A DNA stretch of 37,607 nt from Candidatus Uhrbacteria bacterium (GCA_011046145.1 DSBA01000020.1:1-37607); one strand, 5' to 3'. Positions 10,194 through 30,730 are shown, numbered from the stretch's first letter. Notes: generated from the letters alone by a model not told the origin. Numbers and translations are program-made.

Positions 10194-11015
10194 ATGTATC
10201 TGCTTTTTGATATTGGCGGCAGCAAAACTCGTTTGGCTGTGTCAAAAGACAAGAAAAATTTATCCCAAGTGGAAATTGTTCCTACCCCGCAAGATTTTAA
10301 AAAAGGCATTAAGTTTTTGGTTGATTCGGGCAAAAGGATAACAGGAGGCAAAAAAATTAAAATGGTTGCCGGAGGCATAGCAGGGCCGTTAAATAAAAAC
10401 AAGACCAAATTGGCAAATTCGCCTAATTTGCCTCAATGGGCAAACCAGCCCTTATTTTCTTTGTTAAAAAAAGAATTCAAATCTCCGGTTTTTTTGGAAA
10501 ATGACGCTGCTTTAGCCGGCTTAGGCGAAGTTTATTATGGCGCTGGAAAAGGCGGTAAAATTGTTGCTTATTTAACTATTAGTACAGGAGTTGGCGGCGC
10601 TAGGCTGGTTGAGGGACAAATTGATCAGAATTATTTCGGTTTTGAACCGGGACAACAAATTATTAATTATGACGCTTTAATTAATTTTCAGACACTTGAA
10701 GCAAATATTTCAGGCACGGGCTTGTTTAAAAAATACAAAAAGCCAGCCGCTGAATTGTCAGCCAAAAAAATTTGGGAAAGAGAGGCTAAATTATTAGCAT
10801 ATGGTCTGAACAACATAACTGTTTTGTGGTCGCCGGAAATAATTATTTTAGGCGGGTCGGTTATGAAAAAAATTTCTTTAAAAGAAGTTAGAAAATACTT
10901 CAAACAAACATTAAAAATATTTCCTGGCTTGCCAAAGATCAAAAGATCAAAATTGGGCGATTTGTCAGGAATTTATGGCGCTTTGGCAATTTTAAACACA
11001 AAAAATAAACGCTAA
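10194..11015 (+). CDS. ROK-family sugar kinase (glucokinase-like)
   Basis: It has the LFDIGGSKTRLAV phosphate-1 motif, ENDAALAGLGE and TISTGVGG. Confidence 0.75.
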   Translation: MYLLFDIGGSKTRLAVSKDKKNLSQVEIVPTPQDFKKGIKFLVDSGKRITGGKKIKMVAGGIAGPLNKNKTKLANSPNLPQWANQPLFSLLKKEFKSPVFLENDAALAGLGEVYYGAGKGGKIVAYLTISTGVGGARLVEGQIDQNYFGFEPGQQIINYDALINFQTLEANISGTGLFKKYKKPAAELSAKKIWEREAKLLAYGLNNITVLWSPEIIILGGSVMKKISLKEVRKYFKQTLKIFPGLPKIKRSKLGDLSGIYGALAILNTKNKR

Positions 11016-11066
11016 AAACTTCTTATTTATAATTTTAATAAATATTTTTAAAATTTTTTTAATCCT

Positions 11067-11408
11067 ATGCTTATTCAAGTTATTTTGCTTATCTTCATAA
11101 TTTACGCTGTTTTAAAGGTGGCTTTGCGCTATAAAGACAAAGTGATCTCTTTGCAGGAATTTTTAGTTTGGACACTTTTTTGGTTTATGGTCGCTTTTGT
11201 GGTTATTCTGCCGGAAACAACTTCCTGGTTTGCCAATTTTGTCGGCGTGGGCAGGGGCGTTGATCTGGTCATTTACATTTCAATTTTAATTTTATTTTAT
11301 TTGGCTTTTAGGATTTTGGTGCGTTTGGATAAAATCGAAAAAGATGTGACAAAAATTGTGCGCGAAATCGCTTTGGACAAAGAGGAAACAAAAAATAAAC
11401 AATCTTAA
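11067..11408 (+). CDS. DUF2304-type small membrane protein (usual partner of GT2 genes)
   Basis: At 113 aa it has three hydrophobic segments and the typical LRYKDKVISLQEFLVW...GVGRGVDLVIY pattern. Confidence 0.6.
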   Translation: MLIQVILLIFIIYAVLKVALRYKDKVISLQEFLVWTLFWFMVAFVVILPETTSWFANFVGVGRGVDLVIYISILILFYLAFRILVRLDKIEKDVTKIVREIALDKEETKNKQS

Positions 11409-11481
11409 AATTCAAAAGACAAATGACAAAAAACAAAATAAACTTAAATTTTGAATTTTGCCATTTGATTTTAAATAAAAA

Positions 11482-12348
11482 ATGTTATCTAGCGAAATAA
11501 AATTTTTATTGCAACAGTATGGCATCAGGCCCAGTAAAGCCAAAGGGCAAAATTTTTTAATTAATCAGGGCGTTTTGCAAAAAATAATCAAGGCCGCGGA
11601 CTTGAGCCAAAATGATTGTGTTTTGGAAATCGGACCAGGACTTGGTGTTTTGACCGAAGGATTGATAAAAAAATCTAAAAAGGTTTTAAGCGTTGAGCTG
11701 GACAAGCGTTTGGCTTATTTTCTGAAACAAAAATTTAAAGGCGTTAAAAATTTAAAAATTTTGGAAACAGATATTTTGCAAATTAGAAATGATCAAATTG
11801 TTAAATTGTTAAATTGTTATGAATTAGGCTATAAAGTGGTAGCTAATTTGCCCTATAATATTACCAAACCGGTTTTGCAGAAATTTTTAACAGCCGAGCC
11901 CAAGCCAAAAGAAATAGTTGTTTTAGTCCAAAAAGAAGTGGCGCAAAAAATAGTTGCCAAGCCCGGCCAAATGAGCCTTTTAAGCCTTTCAGTCCAGTTT
12001 TACGGCCAGCCAGAAATTATAGATTATGTGGCCCAAGAAAATTTTTATCCCAAGCCGCAGGTTGAAAGCGCTATTTTAAAAATAAAATTAAATTTAGGAA
12101 AAATGCCGTTGGAGTTATCAACAGCCTTTTTAAAAATTGAGTTTGAAGAAAAAAAATTTTGGCGATTAATAAAAATAGGATTTAGTTCGCCCAGAAAACA
12201 ATTGCAGAATAATTTGGCTGCTGGTTTTCAAATATCCAAAGAAAAAGCCAAAAAAAAGCTAAAATTAGCTAATTTGCAAGAAAAAATCAGGCCCCAGGAT
12301 TTAAGCCTGGCAGATTGGGCAAATCTTTATTTGCAATTTATGGCTTGA
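11482..12348 (+). CDS. rsmA: 16S rRNA (adenine1518/1519-N6)-dimethyltransferase RsmA/KsgA
   Basis: It has KGQNFL, the EIGPGLGVLT SAM-binding loop and the NLPYNI motif. Confidence 0.88.
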   Translation: MLSSEIKFLLQQYGIRPSKAKGQNFLINQGVLQKIIKAADLSQNDCVLEIGPGLGVLTEGLIKKSKKVLSVELDKRLAYFLKQKFKGVKNLKILETDILQIRNDQIVKLLNCYELGYKVVANLPYNITKPVLQKFLTAEPKPKEIVVLVQKEVAQKIVAKPGQMSLLSLSVQFYGQPEIIDYVAQENFYPKPQVESAILKIKLNLGKMPLELSTAFLKIEFEEKKFWRLIKIGFSSPRKQLQNNLAAGFQISKEKAKKKLKLANLQEKIRPQDLSLADWANLYLQFMA

Positions 12349-12408
12349 ACTTGAATTTTATGGTATAATTATTAAAGAATTTGTGATATAATTTTAATAT
12401 ATAATTTA

Positions 12409-13242
12409 ATGTCAGCAGCCCCTGAAAAAATCAAAGAATTTTTTGAAGAAAAAGGCGAAGCAATTACAGAGAAAATAGAAAAAACTCCCATGGAAAAGTT
12501 TTTTGTTTTCTTTTTGGTTTTAATTACAATTTCAGCTTTGGTTTTAGGTTATCTGCAATTTAAAAAAAATATAGAACAGCCTCTTTATTCCAGTTATTTG
12601 CGGGAAATAAGGGGAGAAACCAGGCAAAAATATCAGGCAGAAACTTTAAATCAATCAGCTTTGAATGCTGCTGAAATGCTCGGGCTTCAGCAACTGGATA
12701 GTGATCTGGATGGTTTAAGCGATTATGAAGAAATTTATATTTATGGCACCAGCCCTTATTTGGAAGACACTGACGGCGATGGAATTTTGGACAAACAGGA
12801 AATTTTGGCTGGGACAGATCCGAATTGTCCTGAAGGCCAGGATTGTTCGATTTTGCCTTTTAATGAAACTGGCAGCCAAAGTTCCAGCTATCCGGCTAAT
12901 CTTAACCAAGGAATGATTGAACCGCCGCTTATGGGCTTGGATTTTAATGATTTGTTAGAGATTGAAGATTTGCTTTTAAGGGGAGAAATTACTTTGGAGG
13001 ATTTGGGCATTAATGATCCGCAGATGCAGGCTATGTTTGACCAGCTATCCAGCGGCCAGTTGCGCAATATAGAACAAATATCTCCAGAAGAAAAAGAATT
13101 GATCATTGAATCGTTGCAAGATTTAACTCCGGCGCAAATCAGGCAGGAATTGGCAGCCAGGGGAATTGATGAGAATCTTTTAAATCAGGTTGATGATGAC
13201 ACTCTTAAGCAGATGTTTTTACAGACCCTTGATTTGTATTAA
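12409..13242 (+). CDS. Membrane-anchored protein with thrombospondin type-3-like Ca-binding repeats
   Basis: It has one TM segment (FFVFFLVLITISALVLGYL), then DSDLDGLSDYEE...EDTDGDGILDKQEILAGTDPN. It is the first gene of the co-directional block. Confidence 0.6.
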   Translation: MSAAPEKIKEFFEEKGEAITEKIEKTPMEKFFVFFLVLITISALVLGYLQFKKNIEQPLYSSYLREIRGETRQKYQAETLNQSALNAAEMLGLQQLDSDLDGLSDYEEIYIYGTSPYLEDTDGDGILDKQEILAGTDPNCPEGQDCSILPFNETGSQSSSYPANLNQGMIEPPLMGLDFNDLLEIEDLLLRGEITLEDLGINDPQMQAMFDQLSSGQLRNIEQISPEEKELIIESLQDLTPAQIRQELAARGIDENLLNQVDDDTLKQMFLQTLDLY

Positions 13243-13296
13243 ATTAAAAAAAATCAATTTGTTATTAGTTGGTTATAAATAAATTAAATATTTTTT

Positions 13297-16200
13297 ATGT
13301 TTAAGCCTGATAAAACAAAATTACAGAAAGCGGTAATTTTTCTTATGGCTGTAATTTTTGTTGGCAGTAATTTTTATTTTTTATTATTGGCAGGTTTAAA
13401 GCCAGTACAGGCAACTTTTCCAGTAGTTGATGTGCCGCAGGCGACTTTACAATCAATGTGGTATGCTGGCGATAAAGCTGAAAGCATTTTGCAAAAGGTT
13501 TGGGATGAAGTAGTGGCTATTTTTTTCAAAAATATTTTAGGCACAATGGCTAATATGATTGCCCAGCAATCAGCCAAATGGGTTGCCAGCGGAGGCAAAG
13601 GCGGCGCTCCGCAATTTATCAGCGACCCTAATTTTTGGCAGGATTTTGCTGATAAAGCAGTAGGGGATTTTATCCAGACAACAATGAAAAATTTAACAGG
13701 ACTTGATGTTTGTACTTTGGATCCGCAATTGGCTATAAATTTAGCCATAAATATTCCCTTTTTTCCGGATTGGTCAGGCGTTTATGAGCCGGATTGCAGC
13801 TGGACCCAGTTAAGGAGCCACTGGGAAGAGATTGGCCAAAGAAGGTTTGAAGATTTTATTTCTTTTGATTATGGCATTGGCGCTGGCGGGACTTTTGATG
13901 AAAATGTCGGACGTTTAAATACAGCTGTTGCTCAAGATATTAGTTTAAGAAGATGGCCTATTGAATTGGTAGGACATGGTTATATAATAGGTTGTGACAC
14001 GACTGCAATAAGCGGTGGTTTGGCTACTTGCACTGAACCGCCTGTACAAACGGACCTTTTGAGTTCAGCCAGGGCATTAGATTCTTATACTGCTACTTTG
14101 CGGGCTGATGTTGAGAAAATTTTAACCCATAAAGTGGCTGATACCCCGGCTGATTTAAGTGTTGGGCGTTATCCCATAACACCAGAAAACATGCCGATTA
14201 TCAGAGAAGCTTGGTTAAAGAATATTAATCCTTATATTAGTGATTTGCACCAGATAGCTGATTTATACAGCCGCTGTACAGGCAAAACAGCCTGCGCTTT
14301 AATGCAAATGCCGCCAGATCCACCATTTTGCAAGGCTGCTTTAGACAAGATTAATCTTAAGTCGTTTCTTTGCCCGATTGATGACGGCACAGATGATGAC
14401 GGCACAGATGATGACGGCACAGAAAGCCGTAATCAGGCAACAGCTTTAATTTACCAGACAGAGTTTAATCAAAAAGCCGGGCAAGTCGCAAATATCGCCA
14501 ATGCTATCAAAGGCGGCTTTGAATATTTAAAAACCCAAATAGAACAAAATTTCAAGCCAGAATTATTAGAAGGCAGCGTGGCTTATAATGCGCAACTGGC
14601 AGCCGGCCTTTTTGATCCCAGCGCTAATGAATTTAATGCTTATGAAACACTTGTCAGGCAAATGGCGGATATAAGCTGGAGTGAAGCAATGAATGCTCGC
14701 TTGCAAGCAATGATTGATCAGGGCTGGCAATCAACCACAGACCGCATTGCAGGCTATATTAGGACGCCTTCAAACTTGATCAGGGCCAGGGCAGAAAAAC
14801 AATTGGCTGAAGGCACTGACAGCATTTATGCTTACCACACCAAAAATATCGCGGCTGATGCTTTGGGTGTTTTTTTGCAGACGCTATGGAATGAATTAGC
14901 TTTGCAATTATTAGATATGCTTAATCCTGGCTATTCTGCAGAGACCAGAAGGCATTTATTGACTGTTCCAGGAGGCAAAGAAGCTTTGGAAAGTTTTAGC
15001 GTGATGTCATGGAATCCTTTTGAAGAGCTGATTGTTTCTGAAGAAGGAATTGACAGATATATTCAAAGAGTTGCCCAAAAATTTACAGTTAATTTGTCTT
15101 TTAAGGATGTAAATTTGCTGGCTGATTTCCAATTAAATATCAAAGGCGAGGCCAATCCTAATCTTTATAATAATGTTATTGACCAAAATTTTGCCATTGC
15201 CATTAATGATAAATTGACTATCAAGCAAGCGCTTGATTCTGGCAAATTAGTAGGCGATTATACTTTTTCCTATTCTCCTGCCCGCCCCGGCACATATAAT
15301 TTGGCTAATATCAGAAAGTTAAGAAAAGCCCGGGTAGTGCCTCTGGGTTTGGAACTGGCTGTCCAGTTAATCAGGGATTGCAATCACCGCAAAACTTTTA
15401 ATAATGGTCAGTATGCTGGTTTTCAAGATATTAATGACGTAAATCCGTATGGATACGACAATGTAAGCGATCCTTTTAATTCCCAAAGATTGCAAAATTG
15501 TTTGTTTAAGCCTTATTCAGCTGGCCAGGAGTTAAAAGATGTGAGAGATTATAATACCAGAAAAATGAATGAAGTGGCAGGGGCAACTTTAGCTGATGTG
15601 GTTGATGGTTTTGATAAGGCTGGTTCTGGTATTTGCGGCGATTTTGACGAAAATGAATCGCCTTTTTGCAATTTAGTTAATCCTAATTGGGTTTTAAAAA
15701 TACCGACTACTTTTTGCGCTTTGCAGACAACAAACGAGCCATTTGGCGAACTTTTAACCACCAATAGCAATAGCCAAAGGCAATCGCGCTGCCCTGATTT
15801 TGCTAGTTGTTTAAATGAAGATGGTAAAGGCAGCTGTATAAATGAAGATTATGGCTTTTGCGTCAAAGAAAAAAATGTCTGGCAGTTTGCGACTGATTCT
15901 TGTCCAGAAGAATTTAACAGCTGCCGCACTTATAGTTTGACAAGGTCAGGAGAAAGGACCTCGGTTTCCTATTTAAAAAATACTTTAAGCGGTAGCGATA
16001 TCTGCGGTCCTTATAATGCAGGCTGCAGCTGGTATTCTACGCAGACAGATTTAGCTGGTTTTTGGCAAAACGATGCCAGGATTTATTTTAACCGTTATGT
16101 TGAAGCTTGCGACAGGCAAAATGAAGGTTGCAGTGAATTTGTTTTATATCGCAATCCTGCCAATAACTTAGTCTTTGACTCAAGTTTTGAATATACTCCG

Positions 16201-19200
16201 GAAGGCAATTTTCCAGCTGGCTGGGATTTAAGATTAAAGCAGCGCGTTGATTTGCCGGCTGATTGCCAAGGGACTTTGACTGAAATTTGCAATTATTATC
16301 CTTATGATAATCAATCAGAATGTTTGATTAATAATGGGACTTGGTACGGCTATTGCGATGACGGCGAAAGCTGGAGCCAGGCAGAATGCTTGGACAAGGG
16401 ACAAAATTGGGAATTTGTTTGCCTTAATGCGATTAATAATCAAGCTGATAAAGCAGATTGCGAGGCTGGGGGAGGCGAGTATGAGTATTTTTGCACCAAC
16501 AGCATTTTAAAATATAATCTTTGCCAGAATCCCCAATTTACAGGCGATGACGCGCAAGAACAATGCTTGGCTAATGGCGGTACTTGGCAGCAAGAGTGTG
16601 AAATAGGCGGCAGCGCCAGCAGCGAACTGACCACTTTAGAAGATTGCATGGCTAATGATGGCAGTTGGCGCGAATTTTGCCAAGGGGCCAGATTATATGA
16701 TTTTACCAAACAAAGCTGCAATAATCTTTTGGGTGAATGGCGCGGCGAAGGGCCTTTTAGTGATTTGGCTTTTGTTTCCAAAGACGCAACCAATGTTTAT
16801 CAGGGGTTAAGCAAGCTCCAGGTTAATATAGGAGCTGTGCCTTTTGGCGAGGAATTAGTTTTAGTTTATAAAAGCCATTTTAATGATGAAACAAAAACTT
16901 TAACCAAAGCTGGCGATGCTTATACTGCCACAGCTTATTTTAAATCTAATCAGGTATTGAGCCAGCCCATTACGTTTAATTTGGCAAAAATGAGACAGAC
17001 GCAAAGTGAGCTGAATAGCAAGAGGTTTTTTATTGACCAAAATTATACCAGGGCAGACAGCACTATAATTACTGGAGCTGGAGGCACAGAGCTTGATATT
17101 AGGATTTATTTGCCGGGTGGCGAAGAAGGAGCCTTGGTTTATCTGGATGCAATTGGCTTATCCATTAATTCTTTGAATCAAGTCAGGAATTTTGATTTTA
17201 TTACGCCTTATGCTGATTATGAAGCTAATAATAAATTGTATTATAAAAATCCGCCTGAAAGGCTGAATTGCCATGGTTATGGCCCAGGTGATCCGGCTCC
17301 TCGGCTTGATATTGCGCCTTTAACCAAAGAAGCTTGTGAAGGCGTTGGCGGTTATTGGGATGAAGGTTTAATTTACAGAAATACGGTTGACTGCTATAAA
17401 TATGAACCCGATGATCCTATCTGCAATAATTTTATGAAAGTTTGCGAAGCAGAAGAAGTCGGCTGCCAGCTTTTTACGCCCTTAAACGGCGATCCTCAAG
17501 TGCCGGGCGTGGTAAGCATTACTGATTATTGCCCGGCAGAATGCGTGGGTTATGAAACTTATAAACAAGAGCCGGCTTTATATGAGCCAGAGCCTGATCC
17601 TTTATTCCATTATTTTATACCTGAAACAGCCCGTTCTTGTTCCTTGGCAGAAGTCGGTTGCGCCCAGTTTACTAATTTAGATGAAGTGGCTCGGGGCGGT
17701 GAGGGTATTGGCTATTATACTTATTTAAGGCAATGCATCAAGCCTAATCTTGGCTTGGGTGAAAAGACTTTTTTTACCTGGCAAGGTTCAGCAACAGGCT
17801 CTCCGCAATTGCTTAAATATGAATTTCAGCAAGATCCGGTTACTGGCGCGCCCAAAACAATTGACGGTTCAGGCGATTGCCGTTTGACTTTGAGCGAATA
17901 TGATTTAAACTGCGTTAATTTTTTTGACAGCGCTGGCATTAATTATCACCGCGATATCCGCAAAATCGTTTCAGTTTCAGATGATTGTTCGCCGTTCAGG
18001 AAAACAGAGTCAACCCAGGCAAATTGTCTGGCAACCAATGGCCGTTGGCAGGAAGATCTTCAGGCTTGCATTTATGATGCTATTCCAGCTGAAGCTATTT
18101 CTTGTTCTGCGGAAGCTAATGGCTGCAGAACTTTTATAGGCAATCGGGGCAATAATGTTTATGTGCAGATTTTTGACACTTTTGAAGGTATTGAAGGCAC
18201 TTGGGGATGGTATGCTGGCTCTGACGGCACTAGCGCAGAAGGACTGGCCAGAGTAGGAGAGTCAGTGCAAGTCGGCGGAAATTCTTTATTTGTTTCCTCT
18301 CCAGTTTCAGCTATTCATAAACCTGTAAACATTCAGAAAAATAATTTGTATACCCTTTCTTTTTGGGCCAAGACAAATGATCCAGCTGGCGAAGTCATTA
18401 CTGCAAAATTCAGCACAGCTGTGCCTGATGCCCAGGCTTCTACCCTGGAAGAATTTGCTACTTTAGAAAACAATCTGCAACTGACAAACGAATGGCGCAA
18501 TTATACCTTGGGTCCGGTTTTGGTCAGTTGGGATAATGTGGAAAATAACAGCCTGGTTTTTGATTCATTGGATAGCGAGGTTTATTTTGACAATATTTTA
18601 TTAAGGGTAGTGAGAGACAATGTCTATGTGGTTAAAAACAGCTGGTTTACGCCGGATAGCTGCGACCGCAACATTTTTGGCCAGACAGAAGAAGGCGCCA
18701 TGCTTGGCTGCCAAGCTTATCAGGATTTGCTGGGCCAGACTCACAACCTTAAATCTTTTACCAATTTGTGCCGTGAAAGCGCAATAGGCTGCCAGATTTT
18801 AATTGACACTAAAAATTCAACTAATGCCAATAAACAAATATTCAATGATGACAATCCATCGCCTTTGGATGATTATATTGTGCTGCGAGACGAATTAGTC
18901 ACTTTGGTGGTCAGTGATAATTTTATTTGTTCCAAAACAGATAAAGGCTGTCAAAAATTTGGAAAACCGGTTTACCAAGCTGTTTTGCCCACGTTTGATG
19001 ACGTATACTTGAAAAATGATCCGGATAAATATATTAATGTGCCTAATGCCATAATGTGCAATGAGGAATCTTTGGGCTGTTTGGAATTAATTAATGATGA
19101 GGGCAATGCTGAACATTTTAAAATTGATCCGACCAAGCTTTGCCAGTTTAAAACCAGCACAGTAAGCGGTGAAAATATTAATGGCTGGTTTAAAAAAGGC

Positions 19201-21246
19201 AGTTTGGATTTGGGCTGTACAGCCTTGGATTTTAATACGCCTGCGCCTTGCGAAGCTGGCGGCGGCGGCTGGAGCGCAAAATATAACCAATGCGTCTTGA
19301 TTTTGCATGAAATTAAAGATCAGGCAAATTGCAATCTTAAAAAAGGAGAATGGCTGGCAGCTGATCTGGCAGCTGATTCTGTCTGTTTGGCTTATCCTTT
19401 TACTATTTATAAAGTTGAAGAAGCTAATAAATATAAGGGTTTTGTAGGCGAATGCGACAGCCGATGGAGCGGCTGCACAGAATTTGTTGATATTAATCCA
19501 AACTTTGTTTTTAATGGCAGTTTTGAATCAATTGATCCAACAGGCATGCTTTCCAGTTGGCAGACAAAAGCAGCCAGTTCTGGCAGGCAGAGAATAGACA
19601 CTGATAATTCTAAATTAGGCAATCAGGCTGTCAAGCTGATTAAAACAACAAGCCAAAATTGCCCTAGTACTTATTTATATCCTAATTCGGGCTGCAGCCT
19701 GGATGAGTCTATTGTGCCAAGCTATGCTATTTCCCAAAATATTGTCAGGCTGGAAAAAGGCAGGACTTATAAAATATCTTTTTATTATCGCGTGCCAGAA
19801 GAGGCTAAAGGCAGAGGCGATAATTGCCCATTACCAGAAGTTGTTTTTGAATTTAATTCCCTTGTTGCTGGAGCAGAAAAAGGCCCGCTTTATGTTTTTG
19901 CCCCGGAAAGCGAGTGGAAAAAAGTTGAAGTTTTATATACTGTGCCGGCTGATTCAGCAGAATTTTTACAGGATTTTGAATTGGTTTTATACGCGCCGCT
20001 TAATAAAAATATTGCGGCTGACATAGGCAATTGTCCTGATTCTTTTGTGCTTTATGACCAGGTTGAAATTAAAGACAATACTGAAGACAGTTATTTTGTG
20101 ATTGACCAGGGCTCTAATCTGGACAGGAGCAGTTGTACTTCTGTAAATTGGCAGGCTGGCTGTGTTCAGTTTATTAATACTGACAGAGGCAGGGTAGAAT
20201 TATTAAAAGTTAAAGCTGACAGGAATTGCGCGGAATGGGCAATGTGCACCAGTTATTGCAGTAATCCGATTCATAAAACAGAAGGTGATTGCATAGCAGA
20301 TCTAGCCGGGGAGACATGGAATCTTGATGCTTGTACGGAAATCAGCTTGTGTTCGGAGAAAAAAGCCGGAGAATGCGTTAAATTCACAGAGCCTAAAGAT
20401 AATGTGCGCTATGATTTGAATAACGAGCCTTTAATAGTAAAAAGAATTAGCAATTATGGCGATCAGACAGGCTATATTTACCGCTTTGGGGCTGGTCCTT
20501 TAAGCGCCCTTACCCAATGGCGGGCAGGTGATTATTCTGGTTATACTATTCCAGAAAGGTTCCCGCTAGAAGTTGAACTGGAAAAAGGATTTGAAATTTA
20601 CCAAAGAGAAAATAATCTGGGGGATTCAGATGATATGCGTTTTGTGGCGCCGGTTTGCAAGGTTTTTCCTGCCCAGGATTCACCCATGCCATATGATTTA
20701 ATTTTATCGCCTGATTATAATAATCTTTTAAGCCTTTATAGCCAAAATATGTCTTTGAGCGATTTAGGCAACCTTTGTAATTATGAAGAAGCCCAGGCTT
20801 ATGGGACAAAAACTTATTTTCCAAGAGGCGCTGTTGGTGTTGACAAAATAGATAAAATCTGCACTTCGCCTCAAGACATGAAAGGAAAAGTTTGCAGCAC
20901 AGACGAGGAATGTAAAGGAAAGGTCAGGGGCATTACTGGAGCTGATGGCGAATGCAGGCCGATTGAGGAAGTAAAAGAGTTTTTGGGTTTAGAAGGCATG
21001 TGTTTGGAATTTGATACTTTAAATCCGATTTATGACGGTATTTATAAGGATGTTGGCAAAGATTGCATACCTGATCCAGACAGCGGAATAGAAATTTGTA
21101 CTGGCCCTGATTACCAGCCTTATGCTTGTCTGACTTATTTTCCTTTTATGATAGATTTATGCCCGCTTTATAAAAATGAAACAAGTTGCAAGCTGAATGC
21201 AAATTGCAATTGGCTAGGCGGGGACGGACCATGCATTAGAAAATAA
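13297..21246 (+). CDS. Giant (2649 aa) secreted or N-terminally anchored Cys-rich surface protein with three CBM-like beta-sandwich segments
   Basis: The ORF is uninterrupted. It has an N-terminal hydrophobic segment with an AxA-like site (KPVQA/TF). A [small]-C-x-x-[F/Y/L] motif recurs 12 times, alongside arrays of C-x4-G-x-W mini-modules and three segments with CBM4/9-like edges. There is no C-terminal anchor. Confidence 0.8.
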   Translation: MFKPDKTKLQKAVIFLMAVIFVGSNFYFLLLAGLKPVQATFPVVDVPQATLQSMWYAGDKAESILQKVWDEVVAIFFKNILGTMANMIAQQSAKWVASGGKGGAPQFISDPNFWQDFADKAVGDFIQTTMKNLTGLDVCTLDPQLAINLAINIPFFPDWSGVYEPDCSWTQLRSHWEEIGQRRFEDFISFDYGIGAGGTFDENVGRLNTAVAQDISLRRWPIELVGHGYIIGCDTTAISGGLATCTEPPVQTDLLSSARALDSYTATLRADVEKILTHKVADTPADLSVGRYPITPENMPIIREAWLKNINPYISDLHQIADLYSRCTGKTACALMQMPPDPPFCKAALDKINLKSFLCPIDDGTDDDGTDDDGTESRNQATALIYQTEFNQKAGQVANIANAIKGGFEYLKTQIEQNFKPELLEGSVAYNAQLAAGLFDPSANEFNAYETLVRQMADISWSEAMNARLQAMIDQGWQSTTDRIAGYIRTPSNLIRARAEKQLAEGTDSIYAYHTKNIAADALGVFLQTLWNELALQLLDMLNPGYSAETRRHLLTVPGGKEALESFSVMSWNPFEELIVSEEGIDRYIQRVAQKFTVNLSFKDVNLLADFQLNIKGEANPNLYNNVIDQNFAIAINDKLTIKQALDSGKLVGDYTFSYSPARPGTYNLANIRKLRKARVVPLGLELAVQLIRDCNHRKTFNNGQYAGFQDINDVNPYGYDNVSDPFNSQRLQNCLFKPYSAGQELKDVRDYNTRKMNEVAGATLADVVDGFDKAGSGICGDFDENESPFCNLVNPNWVLKIPTTFCALQTTNEPFGELLTTNSNSQRQSRCPDFASCLNEDGKGSCINEDYGFCVKEKNVWQFATDSCPEEFNSCRTYSLTRSGERTSVSYLKNTLSGSDICGPYNAGCSWYSTQTDLAGFWQNDARIYFNRYVEACDRQNEGCSEFVLYRNPANNLVFDSSFEYTPEGNFPAGWDLRLKQRVDLPADCQGTLTEICNYYPYDNQSECLINNGTWYGYCDDGESWSQAECLDKGQNWEFVCLNAINNQADKADCEAGGGEYEYFCTNSILKYNLCQNPQFTGDDAQEQCLANGGTWQQECEIGGSASSELTTLEDCMANDGSWREFCQGARLYDFTKQSCNNLLGEWRGEGPFSDLAFVSKDATNVYQGLSKLQVNIGAVPFGEELVLVYKSHFNDETKTLTKAGDAYTATAYFKSNQVLSQPITFNLAKMRQTQSELNSKRFFIDQNYTRADSTIITGAGGTELDIRIYLPGGEEGALVYLDAIGLSINSLNQVRNFDFITPYADYEANNKLYYKNPPERLNCHGYGPGDPAPRLDIAPLTKEACEGVGGYWDEGLIYRNTVDCYKYEPDDPICNNFMKVCEAEEVGCQLFTPLNGDPQVPGVVSITDYCPAECVGYETYKQEPALYEPEPDPLFHYFIPETARSCSLAEVGCAQFTNLDEVARGGEGIGYYTYLRQCIKPNLGLGEKTFFTWQGSATGSPQLLKYEFQQDPVTGAPKTIDGSGDCRLTLSEYDLNCVNFFDSAGINYHRDIRKIVSVSDDCSPFRKTESTQANCLATNGRWQEDLQACIYDAIPAEAISCSAEANGCRTFIGNRGNNVYVQIFDTFEGIEGTWGWYAGSDGTSAEGLARVGESVQVGGNSLFVSSPVSAIHKPVNIQKNNLYTLSFWAKTNDPAGEVITAKFSTAVPDAQASTLEEFATLENNLQLTNEWRNYTLGPVLVSWDNVENNSLVFDSLDSEVYFDNILLRVVRDNVYVVKNSWFTPDSCDRNIFGQTEEGAMLGCQAYQDLLGQTHNLKSFTNLCRESAIGCQILIDTKNSTNANKQIFNDDNPSPLDDYIVLRDELVTLVVSDNFICSKTDKGCQKFGKPVYQAVLPTFDDVYLKNDPDKYINVPNAIMCNEESLGCLELINDEGNAEHFKIDPTKLCQFKTSTVSGENINGWFKKGSLDLGCTALDFNTPAPCEAGGGGWSAKYNQCVLILHEIKDQANCNLKKGEWLAADLAADSVCLAYPFTIYKVEEANKYKGFVGECDSRWSGCTEFVDINPNFVFNGSFESIDPTGMLSSWQTKAASSGRQRIDTDNSKLGNQAVKLIKTTSQNCPSTYLYPNSGCSLDESIVPSYAISQNIVRLEKGRTYKISFYYRVPEEAKGRGDNCPLPEVVFEFNSLVAGAEKGPLYVFAPESEWKKVEVLYTVPADSAEFLQDFELVLYAPLNKNIAADIGNCPDSFVLYDQVEIKDNTEDSYFVIDQGSNLDRSSCTSVNWQAGCVQFINTDRGRVELLKVKADRNCAEWAMCTSYCSNPIHKTEGDCIADLAGETWNLDACTEISLCSEKKAGECVKFTEPKDNVRYDLNNEPLIVKRISNYGDQTGYIYRFGAGPLSALTQWRAGDYSGYTIPERFPLEVELEKGFEIYQRENNLGDSDDMRFVAPVCKVFPAQDSPMPYDLILSPDYNNLLSLYSQNMSLSDLGNLCNYEEAQAYGTKTYFPRGAVGVDKIDKICTSPQDMKGKVCSTDEECKGKVRGITGADGECRPIEEVKEFLGLEGMCLEFDTLNPIYDGIYKDVGKDCIPDPDSGIEICTGPDYQPYACLTYFPFMIDLCPLYKNETSCKLNANCNWLGGDGPCIRK
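14380..14424 (+). repeat. In-frame tandem repeat, 3 x 15 nt (DDGTD)3
   Basis: The unit gatgacggcacagat appears twice, then gatgacggcacagaa. The first two copies are identical. Confidence 0.9.
16264..16752 (+). other. Array of ~6 short disulfide-loop modules (C-x4-G-x-W...C) nested inside the first CBM-like segment
   Basis: The modules are SECLINNGTWYGYC, AECLDKGQNWEFVC, ADCEAGGGEYEYFC, EQCLANGGTWQQEC, EDCMANDGSWREFC and QSCNNLLGEWRGEG. The flanks (16162-16260 and 16756-17160) look like the two halves of one beta-sandwich. Confidence 0.5.
18160..18612 (+). other. CBM4/9-like (galactose-binding-like) beta-sandwich segment 2
   Basis: It starts FDTFEGIEGTWGWYAG, includes NNLYTLSFWAKT and NEWRNYTL, and ends VYFDNILL. 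These are typical edge strands of CBM-type jelly rolls. Confidence 0.5.
19495..20078 (+). other. CBM4/9-like beta-sandwich segment 3
   Basis: It runs NFVFNGSFESIDPTGMLSSWQT, GRTYKISFYYRV, EWKKVEVLYTV and VLYDQVEI. Confidence 0.5.
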
Positions 21247-21262
21247 TTTTTCAGATAAATAA

Positions 21263-24151
21263 ATGCTCAAACAAATAAAAAACAAAAAACTTATTGCCCC
21301 AATTTTGCTATTGGCGGTTTTTGTTGTTTTCTTTTCTTTTTGGCCGGCTGATGCGGTTTTTGCCAGTGGTGCTATGGACAAAATTTTTACCACAGCTAAG
21401 AACGTAGGCATATCTATAATTCTTTTCATTGTTAATGTTTTAATTAGTTTAGTGGGTAAAATTTTAGTTTTGCTTATAAAAATATTAGTTATGCTCGCTT
21501 TGTACAATGATTTTATTTATAATCCCTATGTGCAAAAAGGCTGGGTAGTTATCCGCGATATTGTTAATATGTTTTTTATTTTGGGCTTGCTTTTGATTGC
21601 TTTTGCCACGGTTTTAAAAATAGAGAAATTTTCTTATAATAAACTTTTGGGCAGGTTGCTGATTATGGCGATTATAGTTAATTTTAGCCGGACTATTTGC
21701 GGCATTATAATAGATTTTTTCCAGGTGATAATGATAACTTTTGTTAAGTCTTTTAAAGATATTACTGGCGGTAATTTAATGAAAGGCTTTGGAACAGAAA
21801 GTTTATGGCAGGCTGACACAAGCGGCGGCGCAGCTACAAGCACTGTTGATCAAGGGATCCAGGCTGTGGTAGGTTCTATTTTCGGTTTGATTTTTGTTAT
21901 AATTGCGACTATTGTGGTAGCGATTTTTTGCATGATGCTGGCTATTAGAATTGTGGCTTTATGGATTTTAATTGTATTTTCGCCTTTGGCTTTTTTTTCC
22001 TGGGTTTTTGAGCCGGCTGGCGGAAAGATCGCTTCATTATCCCAGCAGTGGTTTGGACAATTTTTTAAATATTGCATGGTAGGCCCTTTTATAGCTTTTT
22101 TCCTTTGGATGGCGCTTATTAGCATGTCAACTGTTTCAGCCCAAATGACTACTAGCGCTGTTCAGGGTGGCATGAAAGCAGACGAGCTGAATAAGCCGGT
22201 TGAAGGTCTTTCGGCTGTGGGCAATGCAGGAAGCACGATTGGCTTTGTTATGGGTATTGCAATGTTGGTGGGAGGCTTATATTTCACTGGTCAAATGGGA
22301 GTGGTTGGTTCTAATTATGCTAGGGGAGGCGTTAATGCTATAAGAAATCAGACAGCGGGCAGAATGGAAAGCATGGCCAGAAGGACTGGCGCGGCAGCCA
22401 AAGGTGTAGCCATGGCGCCGGCCAGGGGAGGGGTTAAACTTGCCAAGATCGGAGGAAAACTTGGCGCTGAAAGAATGCAGATGAGAGGAGGCAAACTGGG
22501 CAGGCTTGCTTACGAAGCGCAATTAGCAACTTCCAAGGAAGGAAGGCAAGTTTTAAAAGATAGAGGCATGGCTATGGCAAGAGCGAAATTAGGCGGACAA
22601 CCAGGCGCGCGAGCTGAACAATTACAAAAAGAGTTAAAATCAAGAGAGGGGCTTTTGCGCAAGGCTGGCGCTGATAAAGATCCTAATGTGATGAAAAAAT
22701 TAGAAAAGCAATATAAAAAGTCTGGAGATAAAGACAATTATATGGCTTTAATGAATATTAAGGCGGCAGAGGGTAAAATTGAACAGTCAGATTTTCAAGA
22801 CGCGGTTAAAATGGGAGCATTTGACAGATTTGGCCATGTTGAGCATCTAAAAGATAAGAATGGGAAAAGAACAGGAAAAATTGATACTAAAAAAACAAGC
22901 GGGGCGGCTTTAATTGCCATGGAGCAGGTAGGGAAAGAATGGGAGAAATCTTTTGAAGATCAAAAGGGATTTAGAGCGTCTTTTTCGCCTATTGTTAGGG
23001 ATCCGATAACAAATGATTGGGAGGTCGTGGAAGGTCAAAAGGGCCAGGAGCTGAAAGCCAAGGATAGTGAATCTAGCATCTCAAGAGGCCGAGGAGAAAA
23101 ATTAGGCAAGGCAGCTAATAGCGGCCAGGTTGCTAATTTGGAGTCATCTACAGCAATGGAAGCATTTTCTCATTTGGTTGGGTTTGGCAAAAACGATGCC
23201 CATTTTCGCATGGTTGGAGATACTGGTCTTGCCAATGTCAAAAAGAGAAATGATGAATTCACTCAAGTTTTAACCAGTAATTTAGATGATAAAAGCAGCG
23301 AAGGCTACAAAGTATTGGAAAAGGCGGCTGATAAAAAGAAATTAACAGGCCAAGAAAAAGTTGATTTTATTGATAAAAGGAAACAAGAAATAAACGATTT
23401 AAAGCAATCTAAGTACTTTAAAGATAATGCCCAACATTTGGTTACTGTATCAAAAACTTCTTCTGGCAAATACGAAGCAGGAACAGGTAAAGAAATAACA
23501 GCTGGGCAGGAAAATCAAAATTTAAAGAATTATCTTCAAGGGCAGGGTATTATACCGACACCACCGCCGCCGCCAACGCCGCCCCCACCGCCTAAATATA
23601 AAGCTGAAATAGATAATTTTGTAGATAAGCGGATGTCGCAGGCGCCTTCTTTAGTCAAAAGCGCTGCCAAAGATTTTGTTACTGAAAAGGCCGGAGATAT
23701 TCTTCATGAAACCGAAGGCCTTGATCAAGCATCCCGGCAAAATAAAATTGCTAAAGAAATAGAAACAAAGACTAGATTGCGCGGACAGGATGCTAAAGAT
23801 ATGGCTGATATAATAATAAAAATGGAAACTCCGATGAAAGAAACGCGCGATAAAGTTTCGCCGAACCTTGACCAAATTGTTAAAAAAGTTAAGGATGAGT
23901 GGGATGCCGGCAGTAAAGATGCTGGGAAAGTTGAGATGAGATTTAATGTGTTCATACAACAATTAAAAAATGAAGCAAAATCCCATGGCTTGACAGAAGA
24001 TAGTTATCAGGCGCGGCAATTAAAAAAAGCCAAAGATGATCTGCTTAAGGAATTAACTAATCTAAATGCTACGGATGCCAGCATAAATAAAGCTATAGAT
24101 AAATTTCAAGCGAATGCCAGAAATTTGGGTTATAATGTCGGGAAAAAATAA
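21263..24151 (+). CDS. Polytopic membrane protein, VirB6/TrbL-like by architecture and position, with a ~600-aa hydrophilic C-terminal extension
   Basis: It has a signal-like N-terminus and at least 6 long hydrophobic segments in the first ~350 aa. A K/E-rich tail follows, containing PTPPPPPTPPPPP (nt 23555-23593). It lies upstream of the PrgI-like and VirB4 genes (a 474-aa ORF intervenes), much as prgH/virB6 do. There is no motif-level proof. Confidence 0.45.
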   Translation: MLKQIKNKKLIAPILLLAVFVVFFSFWPADAVFASGAMDKIFTTAKNVGISIILFIVNVLISLVGKILVLLIKILVMLALYNDFIYNPYVQKGWVVIRDIVNMFFILGLLLIAFATVLKIEKFSYNKLLGRLLIMAIIVNFSRTICGIIIDFFQVIMITFVKSFKDITGGNLMKGFGTESLWQADTSGGAATSTVDQGIQAVVGSIFGLIFVIIATIVVAIFCMMLAIRIVALWILIVFSPLAFFSWVFEPAGGKIASLSQQWFGQFFKYCMVGPFIAFFLWMALISMSTVSAQMTTSAVQGGMKADELNKPVEGLSAVGNAGSTIGFVMGIAMLVGGLYFTGQMGVVGSNYARGGVNAIRNQTAGRMESMARRTGAAAKGVAMAPARGGVKLAKIGGKLGAERMQMRGGKLGRLAYEAQLATSKEGRQVLKDRGMAMARAKLGGQPGARAEQLQKELKSREGLLRKAGADKDPNVMKKLEKQYKKSGDKDNYMALMNIKAAEGKIEQSDFQDAVKMGAFDRFGHVEHLKDKNGKRTGKIDTKKTSGAALIAMEQVGKEWEKSFEDQKGFRASFSPIVRDPITNDWEVVEGQKGQELKAKDSESSISRGRGEKLGKAANSGQVANLESSTAMEAFSHLVGFGKNDAHFRMVGDTGLANVKKRNDEFTQVLTSNLDDKSSEGYKVLEKAADKKKLTGQEKVDFIDKRKQEINDLKQSKYFKDNAQHLVTVSKTSSGKYEAGTGKEITAGQENQNLKNYLQGQGIIPTPPPPPTPPPPPKYKAEIDNFVDKRMSQAPSLVKSAAKDFVTEKAGDILHETEGLDQASRQNKIAKEIETKTRLRGQDAKDMADIIIKMETPMKETRDKVSPNLDQIVKKVKDEWDAGSKDAGKVEMRFNVFIQQLKNEAKSHGLTEDSYQARQLKKAKDDLLKELTNLNATDASINKAIDKFQANARNLGYNVGKK

Positions 24152-24160
24152 GCGTTAATT

Positions 24161-25585
24161 ATGAATAATCAAAAAATAAAAAGTTCAGATTTTGGGAGTT
24201 TTGAGCCGGATTTTTTGGCATTAATCAGCCGATATAAACTGGAAGAAAAAAAAGAAGATATTCTTAAATATGCGGCAGAGGCAATTTTAGGAAAAACTGA
24301 TGAGGTTGCAATGGCTGAGAAACTGATCAGCGATCTAAAGCTTGATTTTGGGGTTGCGGCTGATTTTGCTTATGATTTGCGGGTTGATATATTGGAAAAA
24401 ATTAAAAAAGAAGAAATTGAGGCGATTAAAAAAAATATTAAAGATCGAGAAGCGCAAGAATATTCCCCGCTTGCTATCAGCGATGAACTGATTAAAAAAA
24501 TAGGGTATAAGCCAAAAGATAAGGTTTTTCGCAAAAGATTTGATGACGCGATTTTTAGTTATTTAAAAGACATTAGGGATATGGAAGAATTGGAAGATAT
24601 TTTAACCCGTTCCACTAAAATCGGAGGGGTTGGGCTTTCAAAAGATGCTTTTTATGATTTGGAGAATTTATTAATTGATAAAAAAAAGGAAATTTCAGAA
24701 AAAGGCGTTGATATGGCTAAAATCATAAGCGATTACGAATCCCAATTTAAAAGCGGAGAATTTAAAGATGTAAAAGAGGAAGAAATTGATGTGGCTGCCA
24801 AGCCAGAAAGATTGTCGTCTGAAGAAGGAAGAACTGTTAGCGAAGATGTAACCATTGACAAGCTTTTGCAAGCCAAAGGCATTGAATTTGAAAAATTAAG
24901 CCGTAAAGAAGAGATAAAAAAAGATCTTTTAGAAAAAGAGGATTCCTTTGCGCCGCAAGCCAGGGCTTGGGAGGATAAAGCCAAAGAAGGCCAAAGTCTT
25001 TTAGCCAGGGAAATTGAGGAGAAAGAAGATTTTTTGGAAAGCAAAGAAGAAATTGCGCCGCCGCCGGTTATTAAAGAAGAGATAAAAAAAGAGACAGAGC
25101 CAAAAGAGCAAGAAGCGGTTAAAGAAACAGGCGCGGTTTTGCCGGCAGCAATGCCCCAGCCCCAAACTCCGCCATCTCAAACAAAGCCATTAGAACCAGA
25201 AGAAAAACAGCCCTTTTTAAAAAAATCTTTTCCAGCAGCGCGGCCCAGGGTTGAAGATGTTAAATTTGCCTCTAAATTATACGGGCCCATAGATGAATTA
25301 GCTGCTTTTAAAATAGAAGATCTGCGCCGCCTTTCCAAAAATCCCCAAGAAGCTGTGAATAAGATAAAAGACAAATTGGAGCTTTTAGAAGAGGAATCTT
25401 TAATTAAAAGGATTGAAGGCATTAAGGCTTTAAAAGCCAGCCCGCTTTATAAAATTTACGCTGATATTATGAATAAAGCGATTAAGGAAGGCAAGCCATT
25501 TGATCAGGTTTTGCAAGAAAATCCGGTTTTAAGCCCCGAAGAATTCAAGGCGATTATGGAGTTAAATAAAAGCTTAAAATATTAA
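24161..25585 (+). CDS. K/E-rich hypothetical protein with a Pro-rich linker
   Basis: The ORF is 474 aa with no TM segment and no recognisable catalytic motif. It has a Pro-rich stretch (APPPVIKEE...QPQTPPSQTKPLEPEE). The gap to the upstream gene is 9 nt. Confidence 0.5.
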   Translation: MNNQKIKSSDFGSFEPDFLALISRYKLEEKKEDILKYAAEAILGKTDEVAMAEKLISDLKLDFGVAADFAYDLRVDILEKIKKEEIEAIKKNIKDREAQEYSPLAISDELIKKIGYKPKDKVFRKRFDDAIFSYLKDIRDMEELEDILTRSTKIGGVGLSKDAFYDLENLLIDKKKEISEKGVDMAKIISDYESQFKSGEFKDVKEEEIDVAAKPERLSSEEGRTVSEDVTIDKLLQAKGIEFEKLSRKEEIKKDLLEKEDSFAPQARAWEDKAKEGQSLLAREIEEKEDFLESKEEIAPPPVIKEEIKKETEPKEQEAVKETGAVLPAAMPQPQTPPSQTKPLEPEEKQPFLKKSFPAARPRVEDVKFASKLYGPIDELAAFKIEDLRRLSKNPQEAVNKIKDKLELLEEESLIKRIEGIKALKASPLYKIYADIMNKAIKEGKPFDQVLQENPVLSPEEFKAIMELNKSLKY

Positions 25586-25596
25586 AATAAGAGATT

Positions 25597-26010
25597 ATGG
25601 AGCAATTTATGGTTCCGCAATTTATTGATGTGGAATCAAAAATAATAGGTCCGATTACAACCAGGCAATTTTTGATTTTAATGGTTGCTGGCATGCTGGA
25701 TTTTATTTTTTATAAGGTGTTTTATTTTAATACTTTTGTTGTAGTTGCCTTAATAGTTACCGGGATTTTTGGCGTGATAGCTTTTGTCAAGGTTAATGGC
25801 ATGCCTTTTCATTATTTTTTTCTGAACTTGGTCCAGACCTTGAATAGGCCGAGATTAAGAATTTGGTGCAAAGAGGAAGTTGCGGCTTTGCCGTCGGAAG
25901 AAAAAGCAGAAGTTAAAAAAGAATTTATTGCCAAGCCTTTTATTCCCCAATCAAGGCTGACTTCTTTGTCATTGATAGTTAATACCGGTGGAGTTTATCG
26001 GGAGGAATAA
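25597..26010 (+). CDS. PrgI-family / VirB3-like small T4SS membrane protein
   Basis: The N-terminus VPQFIDVESKIIGPITTRQFLIL is followed by two TM segments. This is the PrgI-family pattern (PF12666, from memory), and the gene sits upstream of the VirB4 gene with one 219-aa ORF between. Confidence 0.7.
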   Translation: MEQFMVPQFIDVESKIIGPITTRQFLILMVAGMLDFIFYKVFYFNTFVVVALIVTGIFGVIAFVKVNGMPFHYFFLNLVQTLNRPRLRIWCKEEVAALPSEEKAEVKKEFIAKPFIPQSRLTSLSLIVNTGGVYREE

Positions 26011-26084
26011 AATCTTTTTGTTATTAGTTATTGGCAAAATATTTTTTAGATTATTAATTCAAGTTTAAATAATAATTAATATTT

Positions 26085-26744: not shown

Positions 26745-26761
26745 ATAATAATTTTTAATAT

Positions 26762-28708: not shown

Positions 28709-28785
28709 ATAAAAAATGACATTTGTGATTAGCCTTGAATATTGGCTGATTACTGATTTACAATAAATTAATTTTTTAAAATTTT

Positions 28786-29448: not shown

Positions 29449-29518
29449 GCTGGCAAATTTTTATCAGATTATTTGCGGGTCAGAATATTTGAAAAATTAA
29501 AAACTATATATTTTTAGG

Positions 29519-30256: not shown

Positions 30257-30329
30257 TTGACTATAACCATAGCAAATAAGCAAGCAAAATATTTTTTGAA
30301 GAGATATTATTATAATTGTTATATAAGGA

Positions 30330-30416: not shown

Positions 30417-30501
30417 AAATAAAGTTTAGGGCATTAAGTATTGGGCAAGAGTTGAAAGATATTGCCTCGTTTAATACCCAATACTCATTGATAGATTTAT
30501 G

Positions 30502-30593: not shown

Positions 30594-30730
30594 AAAAGCC
30601 CTAAACCTTATTTAATATTTTAGCTAAAATATCAATAAAAGTCAATTGTTAATAAAGAGGGCTCCTTTATTGCAGTAATTATTATTTTAATTTATAATAT
30701 AATTAGGCAGATTAATTAAATTATATTTGT

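Follow-up and report, generated by a model that had tools for sequence, protein, structure and literature searches.

The stretch of DNA under study (the window) comprises 37,607 nucleotides (nt) from Candidatus Uhrbacteria bacterium (GCA_011046145.1 DSBA01000020.1:1-37607), and all positions are counted from its first letter. Between the genes of a TSP3-repeat membrane protein and a VirB6-like membrane protein, next to further genes of a type IV secretion system (T4SS), the window carries an intact open reading frame (ORF) of 2,649 amino acids (aa), referred to here as the giant gene (Table 1). Its predicted product, the giant protein, would have a size of roughly 290 kDa and would be extracellular after Sec export. 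It contains 98 cysteines (3.7%): residues 1-760 have 10, and the 1,889 residues after them have 88. An earlier note on this DNA, made from the sequence alone, had described the N-terminal ~700 aa as poorer in cysteine, and the whole as a giant exported protein in which cysteine modules alternate with three beta-sandwiches of the CBM4/9 type (CBM, carbohydrate-binding module). Both descriptions held, and the cysteine modules matched nothing in Pfam, NCBIfam or the Protein Data Bank (PDB). On balance we lean towards reading the giant protein as an adhesin or stalk, exported by Sec and stapled by disulfides, with which the T4SS of ABY1, the class to which the Uhrbacteria belong, contacts the host.

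Table 1. Features of the window, in order of position (aa ranges are residues of the giant protein unless marked otherwise; staple units are numbered 1-12 as in the text)
Feature	Position	Strand	Remarks
TSP3 protein	12409-13242	+	277 aa; short cytoplasmic N-terminus, transmembrane segment at its own aa 26-52, exported TSP3 repeats
Giant gene	13297-21246	+	intact ORF, 2,649 aa
Putative signal peptide	13297-13413	+	aa 1-39; K-rich n-region, 23-residue hydrophobic core, V-Q-A/T-F
N-terminal region	13414-15576	+	aa 40-760; Cys-poor, mostly helical
Cys region 1	15577-16161	+	aa 761-955; 12 invariant or nearly invariant Cys; units 1-3
Beta-sandwich 1	16162-17160	+	aa 956-1288; diverged CBM_4_9-type jelly roll (predicted), split by array
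C-x4-G-x-[WY]-x3-C array	about 16264-16761	+	aa ~990-1155; about 5-6 units, period 22-35 aa
Cys region 2	17161-18159	+	aa 1289-1621; units 4-6; single C-x4-G-x-W at 17335, 18025
Beta-sandwich 2	18160-18612	+	aa 1622-1772; CBM_4_9, 26.0 bits
Cys region 3	18613-19494	+	aa 1773-2066; units 7-10; C-x4-G-x-W at 19249, 19330
Beta-sandwich 3	19495-20079	+	aa 2067-2261; CBM_4_9, 34.7 bits
C-terminal Cys-rich region	20080-21246	+	aa 2262-2649; look-alike units 11-12
VirB6-like protein	21263-24151	+	962 aa, polytopic; named from topology and position only
Acidic protein	24161-25585	+	474 aa, no transmembrane segment; conserved in the cluster
PrgI / VirB3-type small membrane protein	25597-26010	+	Pfam PrgI E = 3.2e-9
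TrsD-like protein	26085-26744	+	NCBIfam TrsD E = 1e-8; weak Pfam TraC_F_IV
VirB4-type ATPase	26762-28708	+	Pfam P-loop_TraG E = 1e-27, AAA_10
VirB8-like candidate	28786-29448	+	220 aa; one N-terminal transmembrane segment and a globular exported part; named from layout only
ComF-like phosphoribosyltransferase	29519-30256	+	
tRNA-Ser (two genes)	30327-30417, 30501-30593	-	
tRNA-Arg	31324-31395	+	
RecG	31476-33545	+	
RadA	36140-37471	-	

Cysteine modules and beta-sandwiches of the giant protein

The earlier note had listed 12 instances of a recurring cysteine motif by their strings and Cys codons, and all 12 were recovered at exactly those codons: NSCRTY (15922), AGCSWY (16024), EGCSEF (16129), VGCQLF (17464), VGCAQF (17659), NGCRTF (18124), IGCQIL (18790), KGCQKF (18949), LGCLEL (19078), SGCTEF (19474), AGCVQF (20161) and GECVKF (20374). 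Each of these cysteines has a partner Cys seven residues upstream (nine and eight residues upstream in units 11 and 12, respectively), and because of this partner the motif is better written C-x6-C-x2-[FYL]; we refer to it as a staple. Strict copies number 10, compared with 0.62 expected and a maximum of 5 in 2,000 shuffles. In 22 of 22 homologues, at 27-96% identity, none of the 24 cysteines of the 12 units is replaced, and within the regions tested the staple cysteines stay invariant in alignments of 34-61 sequences.

The units were then compared profile against profile with hhalign, each of the 12 being represented by a 37-column sub-alignment of the family. Units 3-10 aligned mutually and in register with probabilities of 40-95%, unit 1 aligned with units 5 and 6 only, and units 2, 11 and 12 matched no other unit in this comparison. 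Because of these alignments we regard units 3-10, and in part unit 1, as one module present in eight or nine copies, and units 2, 11 and 12 as look-alikes. The twelve-fold recurrence of the motif therefore holds as a repeat family for the former units and not for the latter three.

An AlphaFold model of aa 935-2070 (model A; 34 sequences, mean predicted local distance difference test score (pLDDT) 84.1, predicted template modelling score (pTM) 0.72) places a one-turn helix inside the Cys-Cys loop of the staple and, from the second Cys onward, a beta-strand. The helix was called at six of the seven units that are covered confidently, unit 9 having the strand only; unit 10 falls in the end part of the model, which is of low confidence. 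Each beta-sandwich is introduced by one staple (...GCSEF...NLVFDSSFE, ...GCRTF...FDTFE and ...GCTEF...NFVFNGSFE, respectively). The secondary-structure geometry, the invariance of the pairs and the parity of the Cys count together suggest that these cysteines are joined in disulfides. Of the 136 family members of full length, 109 have an even number of cysteines (p = 7e-13), in keeping with the disulfide chemistry outside the cell that the earlier note had proposed, and the approximately 49 predicted disulfides would make the protein rigid. The Myxococcus cysteine-rich repeat, DUF4215 and similar models gave no match (Pfam at E <= 5 on pieces of the protein; NCBIfam at E <= 0.1). Cys region 2 is the most conserved part of the giant protein, with 0.6% substitutions relative to a strain variant of 96% identity.

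A second motif, C-x4-G-x-W, has eight strict matches compared with 0.12 expected by shuffling. Among the single sites named in the earlier note, those near 17335, 18025, 19249 and 19330 are strict, whereas those near 20285 and 21195 are looser variants. The array of such units that it had also reported is real, but it is a clade-specific insertion inside the first jelly roll and not a family-wide feature. Six array units are modelled with pLDDT above 90 in model A, each as a 6-residue helix followed by a 6-residue strand (assigned with DSSP), the first Cys lying within the helix and the second at the end of the strand. No DNA-level tandem repeat was found beneath the array, and its units are therefore old and diverged. 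The insertion follows the third strand of beta-sandwich 1 and occurs only in the close clade; distant homologues have a sandwich of ~165 aa at this place, compared with 333 aa here. The array is therefore a lineage-specific elaboration and no hallmark of the family. A search with the array alone yielded six candidates and no match, and missed even the relative of 96% identity, so that it says nothing on the wider spread of this module.

Beta-sandwiches 2 and 3 exceed the gathering score of Pfam CBM_4_9 (PF02018; 25.9 bits), and the whole giant protein reaches 45.6 bits with the same model. Beta-sandwich 1 of the window gave no Pfam match, even when the array insertion was cut out. Its insertion-free orthologues scored above the PF02018 threshold in four of seven distant homologues (30.6-35.2 bits), hhalign aligned it with beta-sandwich 2 (E = 8e-5 over 108 columns), and in model A it is modelled with about 12 strands at pLDDT above 90. 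By profile and predicted fold, all three segments are CBM4/9-type jelly rolls, and they lie where the earlier note had placed them. Beta-sandwich 2 is universal, being present in every family member. Beta-sandwiches 1 and 3 are dispensable in some members; the third is shrunk to 14-18 residues in 8 of 22 homologues and is missing in many distant ones.

For beta-sandwich 2, a family profile matched PDB sequences of the CBM22 of xylanase Xyn10C (4xup, 1.3e-7) and of the CBM4 of laminarinase 16A (1gui, 6.8e-5). In Foldseek, structures of CBM4-2, CBM16, CBM22 and CBM61 (2zew, 3oea, 2zex, 4bj0 and 4xuo) superposed with target template modelling scores (TM-scores) of 0.52-0.69 and root-mean-square deviations of 2.7-4.7 Å over about 140 columns. 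The three sandwiches match the CBM4/CBM9/CBM16/CBM22/CBM61 superfamily by hidden Markov model, PDB sequence and fold; unlike the known CBMs they come without a glycoside hydrolase, each of them follows a staple, and the first carries the 170-residue Cys-repeat insertion. In the viral structure library BFVD, the best fold matches were phage tail-fibre, host-specificity and receptor-binding proteins with CBM-cenC modules. These matches of predicted folds show a module type that is widely used for recognition of bacterial surfaces, and they do not thereby indicate the ligand of the giant protein. Searches with Pfam, NCBIfam, PDB sequences and folds revealed no catalytic domain anywhere in the 2,649 aa. 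Besides CBM_4_9, Pfam gave nothing at E <= 0.01 for the whole protein or at E <= 5 for the Cys-rich, N-terminal and C-terminal pieces, and the two Pfam-positive CBM pieces had extra matches at chance level only.

The N-terminal signal was called from its sequence pattern and not by a dedicated predictor. Homologues keep the n-h-A-x-A layout, often with a Q after the A-x-A, and a hydrophobic N-terminal segment is present in 121 of 136 family members; other transmembrane-like segments occur in 7 of 136. The segment looks like a cleavable Sec signal and not an anchor. The earlier note had allowed for either at its PVQA/TF site, and only the Sec signal with its conserved A-x-A was retained.

Beyond the signal, the N-terminal part has conserved blocks at aa ~76-200, 440-700 and 760-830, and aa 201-400 and 700-750 are clade-specific insertions. 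AlphaFold model B (aa 41-960) reached a pLDDT of 67.8 and a pTM of 0.39, with pLDDT above 85 for aa ~200-425 and ~610-800. The best part of this model, a bundle of long helices at aa ~200-425, is an insertion that distant homologues lack. A fold search with the N-terminal model returned nothing significant (best E 0.4), and a PDB sequence search with aa 41-960 gave no match. A ClyA-like, VirB5-like or lytic-enzyme N-terminus was considered and is unsupported; at a best E of 0.4, the fold hits were coiled coils of a generic kind, chemoreceptors and ClyA-type toxins. Also in this part is the one perfect DNA repeat of the giant gene, three tandem copies of a 15-nt unit encoding DDGTD (14379-14423, +). 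The relative of 96% identity has a 10-residue indel at this repeat, and the repeat number therefore varies between strains.

The C-terminal region is the most variable part of the protein. It spans 543-2,578 aa in homologues and shows 6.2% substitutions relative to the 96% relative, the highest value of any segment in the aligned comparison. The protein ends in ...CNWLGGDGPCIRK and has neither a C-terminal transmembrane segment nor an LPXTG motif. In the last 60 residues, LPXTG was found in 0 of 136 family members. The earlier note had likewise seen no C-terminal sorting signal in the protein.

The giant family and its conserved neighbourhood

The first homology search returned 22 proteins of 2,091-4,314 aa, collinear with the query at 27-96% identity. 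All are unnamed or 'hypothetical' and come from Falkowbacteria, Uhrbacteria or the 'Patescibacteria group'. An exhaustive search of 1.84 billion cluster representatives, made with a profile of aa 1290-2070, yielded 1,188 proteins at E <= 1e-30, or about 1,190 clusters at 50% identity. Each of the best 150 matches the profile over nearly its full length with a score above 630 bits, and most of these 150 are about 3,000 aa long. Relatives were present in at least 161 species genomes (one genome per species, searched with a single peptide pattern); the spread of the family was a point that the earlier note had raised. Informative genome names were only those of Falkow-, Buchanan-, Uhr-, Magasanik- and Komeilibacteria, all of the ABY1 class. 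Many of the species-representative metagenome-assembled genomes with the locus (L004, L008, L011 and others) bear the title 'uncultured Gammaproteobacteria bacterium', and a few isolated records that of 'Methylomirabilis' or 'Kapaibacterium'; such titles are evidently wrong or placeholders.

Neither Pfam nor NCBIfam holds a model for the giant protein apart from the CBM modules. An NCBIfam choice-of-anchor C match was rejected, its 14.5 bits standing against a cut-off of 120. No relative was found by tblastn of the giant core against 72,556 plasmids (PLSDB), and a full-text literature search turned up no paper on the family. In the locus figure of a published T4SS survey, genes without profile hits are coloured grey and no such gene is discussed (PMC12102498).

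Synteny was counted over 83 loci. The order KsgA - TSP3 protein - giant protein - ~1,000-aa membrane protein - ... - PrgI - TraC-like - VirB4 was conserved, and it was seen around homologues of only 28-31% identity. Among 68 loci with enough sequence, 67 have the TSP3 gene as the immediate upstream neighbour of the giant gene (median gap 9 nt). On the downstream side, 37 of 53 loci contain a VirB6-like match, as do all 10 loci that offer at least 6.5 kb of sequence there (median gap 36 nt); 8 of these 10 also have PrgI. The link to the adjacent T4SS-like genes that the earlier note had drawn is supported by this operon-like synteny, which is kept down to 27% identity.

The TSP3 protein is an undescribed partner of the giant protein. 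It matches Pfam TSP3_bac (E = 2.7e-11), whose repeats are of the Ca-binding type, has one C-x5-C pair, and is possibly a membrane tether or chaperone for the giant protein. The VirB6-like protein has seven or more hydrophobic segments in its aa 1-345 and a long hydrophilic Pro-rich C-terminal extension. It gave no Pfam match, and tblastn of its N-terminus against the same 72,556 plasmids was empty. Its tail of ~600 residues is hydrophilic and Lys/Glu-rich, contains a PTPPPPPTPPPPP stretch (CCG-rich repeat at 23561-23592) and recalls the 'extended VirB6' proteins of Rickettsiales. Some Uhrbacteria (L003, 20597-23874) carry extra genes between the giant and VirB6-like genes, including one for a 604-aa M23 peptidase, possibly this system's VirB1-like wall hydrolase. 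For VirB4 the function is split: ahead of the ATPase lies the TrsD-like ORF, which resembles the VirB4 N-terminal domain, as reported for most Patescibacteria. The 220-aa VirB8-like candidate had no support from Pfam. No relaxase or coupling protein was found among the window ORFs scanned with Pfam, in agreement with the published picture (PMC12102498), and no VirB2-like pilin gene was found among them.

These results show that the giant family is large, conserved, specific to ABY1, exported, modular, even in its Cys count and operon-like with T4SS membrane and ATPase genes. It is new in its sequence, module composition, disulfide density and missing anchor; lectin-bearing surface proteins of secretion systems are already known as a kind.

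Proposed host contact and the alternative readings

Epibiotic growth of cultivated Saccharibacteria requires the T4SS (PMC10633639), and a 2025 phylum-wide survey of Patescibacteria T4SS reported 'no adhesins' (PMC12102498). While the anatomy of the giant protein and its gene linkage to the T4SS are observed, we infer from them a host-contact function and sugar binding, and with them the role as 'business end' of the T4SS that the earlier note had assigned. After export and oxidation, the conserved base of the protein would stay at the cell surface through non-covalent contacts, for which the probably co-translated TSP3 membrane protein and the VirB6-like channel protein, singly or together, are candidate partners. 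The stapled core would span the wall as a stiff spacer, and the beta-sandwiches and the variable C-terminus would bind host-cell glycans or other surface polymers. This binding would hold the VirB3/TrsD/VirB4/VirB6-like translocon against its target. The giant protein would then take the job that LPXTG adhesins such as PrgB do in Gram-positive conjugation systems, or that VirB2/VirB5 pili do in other Patescibacteria. This proposal fits with the lack of a relaxase and a coupling protein at ABY1 loci, that of the window among them, and with the lack of a pilin gene among the scanned ORFs of the window.

Several observations weigh against this proposal. The functional link to the T4SS is drawn from synteny alone, and the unrelated housekeeping gene for KsgA is also syntenic, in 52 of 61 loci; conserved order alone is therefore no proof of shared function. 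The names VirB6-like and VirB8-like stem from topology and position, with no profile or BLAST support, and 16 of 53 loci have no VirB6-like match within the 3.6-6 kb available downstream, although at least some of these, such as L003, carry inserted genes there. No Dsb or VKOR gene was found among the Pfam-scanned ORFs of the 37.6-kb window. Sugar binding by the beta-sandwiches is presumed; their conserved residues look like core residues, and sandwiches of this type can also be purely structural, as in Cry protoxins. Finally, the signal is probably cleaved, and there is no sorting motif that would retain the protein on the cell.

PrgB-type adhesins (pCF10 and relatives) are likewise large exported proteins inside a monoderm MPF-FATA-type T4SS cluster, and they are thought to mediate cell-cell contact, as proposed here for the giant protein. 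The VirB4 of the window has its nearest match in the CD1110-family VirB4 that plasmids of Firmicutes and Actinobacteria carry (31-36% identity). The giant protein differs from PrgB in that it has no LPXTG, shows no relation to the PrgB domain by sequence or Pfam, and is absent from the 72,556 plasmids; it is also rich in Cys, whereas Gram-positive adhesins are typically Cys-poor. CagY of Helicobacter pylori is another very large T4SS surface protein and has repeats with regularly spaced conserved Cys pairs, but it contains a VirB10 domain, its repeats are helical, it belongs to a diderm system and it has no CBM modules. Pfam found no VirB10 similarity in the giant protein. No PrgB-like adhesin turned up among Patescibacteria in the published survey (PMC12102498).

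Large Cys-rich extracellular proteins of over 1,500 aa with a signal peptide have been described in Peregrinibacteria, with a proposed role in attachment (PMC4736985). Those proteins have 7% Cys, form a 14-gene paralogous cluster, show weak similarity to the Myxococcus Cys-rich repeat and have no reported link to a T4SS (PMC4736985); the giant protein, unlike them, matches no Cys-rich repeat model. SiiE of Salmonella, a giant non-fimbrial adhesin, brings an injectisome within reach of its target via a glycosylated receptor (PMC6375660). It differs in its BIg repeats, its low Cys content, its export by a type I secretion system and its location on a separate island, and it has no homology to the giant protein. 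Phage receptor-binding and tail-fibre proteins are also long and modular and use the same type of beta-sandwich for bacterial surface glycans, but the matches to them are at the level of domains only (global TM-score about 0.1), there is no phage context, and Cys staples are not named in them. The Reelin repeats (PDB 2e26), third in the Foldseek list, likewise consist of jelly rolls spaced by small disulfide modules; Reelin is eukaryotic with EGF modules, and at a global TM-score of 0.10-0.15 the likeness is an analogy only.

In a different reading, the giant protein would be an extracellular conduit or stalk, perhaps an oligomer on the VirB6-like protein, that replaces the VirB2/VirB5 pilus and, as a passage or rigid needle, lets substrates pass to the host. 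We consider this unlikely. The outer half of the ABY1 T4SS would then be neither such a pilus nor an LPXTG adhesin, and instead a single ~3,000-residue stapled protein, acting as stalk or conduit towards the host cell, on a VirB6-like channel plus a TSP3 tether. Such an arrangement, which we doubt, would if true be a previously unseen T4SS architecture made from a new class of C-x6-C stapled mini-modules. The position of the giant gene directly upstream of the VirB6-like gene, at the median gap of 36 nt, is consistent with a conduit, as is the lack of a VirB2-like pilin among the window ORFs scanned; pilin arrays reportedly abound above all in other classes, Microgenomatia and Saccharimonadia (PMC12102498). 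High conservation of the core and its prediction as one rigid body (pTM 0.72) also suit a conduit, and the long-helix region near the N-terminus resembles helical-bundle toxins, at a non-significant level. The confidently modelled bundle (aa 200-425) is, however, a clade-specific insertion and therefore cannot be the conserved functional core. Furthermore, no likeness in fold or sequence to VirB2, VirB5, VirB9, VirB10 or any channel protein was found, and beta-sandwiches and hairpins in a monomeric chain would leave no obvious lumen.

It is likewise improbable that the giant protein is a scaffold of the cell's own envelope, that is, an S-layer-like or wall-binding protein which sits on the cell's own glycans and has no contact with a host. 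Its gene would then neighbour the T4SS genes merely as another gene with an envelope function. CBM-type modules can anchor proteins to cell walls. The family is very widespread, occurs once per locus in the loci seen and has a strongly conserved core, and the housekeeping KsgA gene is likewise kept nearby. Large Cys-rich envelope proteins that lack a T4SS link also exist in other Patescibacteria (PMC4736985). Against a scaffold, the flanking gaps of 9 and 36 nt are held across a divergence to 27% identity and suggest co-translation with T4SS membrane components, and a length-variable, fast-changing C-terminus is more typical of partner recognition than of a self-assembling lattice.

We regard it as very unlikely that the giant protein is a receptor for DNA uptake, capturing extracellular or host DNA or polymers for a T4SS that works inward like ComB of Helicobacter. 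Genes for a ComF-like protein, RecG and RadA lie just downstream and are common at ABY1 T4SS loci (PMC12102498), the scanned window ORFs include no relaxase or coupling protein, and Patescibacteria lack nucleotide synthesis (PMC10633639). However, no DNA-binding domain was detected in the giant protein by Pfam or NCBIfam, and its CBM-type modules point to glycans and not to DNA. In Saccharibacteria, moreover, competence needs type IV pili and ComEC, and the essentiality of the T4SS is independent of ComEC (PMC12857230). We give almost no credence to a secreted polysaccharide harvester, a released glycan binder, non-catalytic or cryptically catalytic, that is unrelated to cell-cell contact: the three CBM_4_9 modules, the cleavable signal without an anchor and the alpha-amylase, glycosyltransferase and ROK kinase genes a few kb upstream would suit it, but the sequence and fold searches named above found no catalytic domain in the protein, and the sugar-metabolism genes lie outside the conserved neighbourhood of the homologous loci.

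Among these readings we prefer a host-contact adhesin or stalk. Few systems have been shown to be indispensable when cultivated Patescibacteria live as epibionts, and the T4SS is one of them; the giant family would give ABY1, a large uncultivated class, a testable candidate for a host-contact component. Its core is conserved enough for antibodies or structural work, and the variable C-terminus might track host range. The family also holds two small putative disulfide modules that are in no database, the C-x6-C staple and the helix-strand C-x4-G-x-W-x3-C unit, and it points to a heavy dependence of these minimal bacteria on disulfide formation outside the cytoplasm.

Other genes of the window

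Upstream of the TSP3 gene the window encodes NrdR, NrdD, NrdG, HtrA, a class I release factor (PCRF/RF-1 domains), a GT2 glycosyltransferase, a GH13 amylase, a ROK kinase and KsgA. NrdR, the anaerobic ribonucleotide reductase NrdD and the radical-SAM activase of NrdD are encoded as a group at 414-4334 (+), which fits an anaerobic, nucleotide-salvaging lifestyle. A scan of 10900-30400 for promoters and terminators gave counts equal to those in shuffled sequence. Downstream of the T4SS genes lie those for the ComF-like protein, RecG, MPG and RadA, and the arrangement of comF, recG and radA is typical of ABY1 T4SS loci (Quinonero-Coronel et al., PMC12102498). A 115-aa ORF at 30257-30604 (+) was rejected as spurious, as it overlies the two minus-strand tRNA-Ser genes. 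Between the MPG and RadA genes, a 133-aa ORF at 35726-36127 (-) has an IS200-like Y1 transposase domain (E = 1.5e-8) and may be a truncated remnant of a mobile element.

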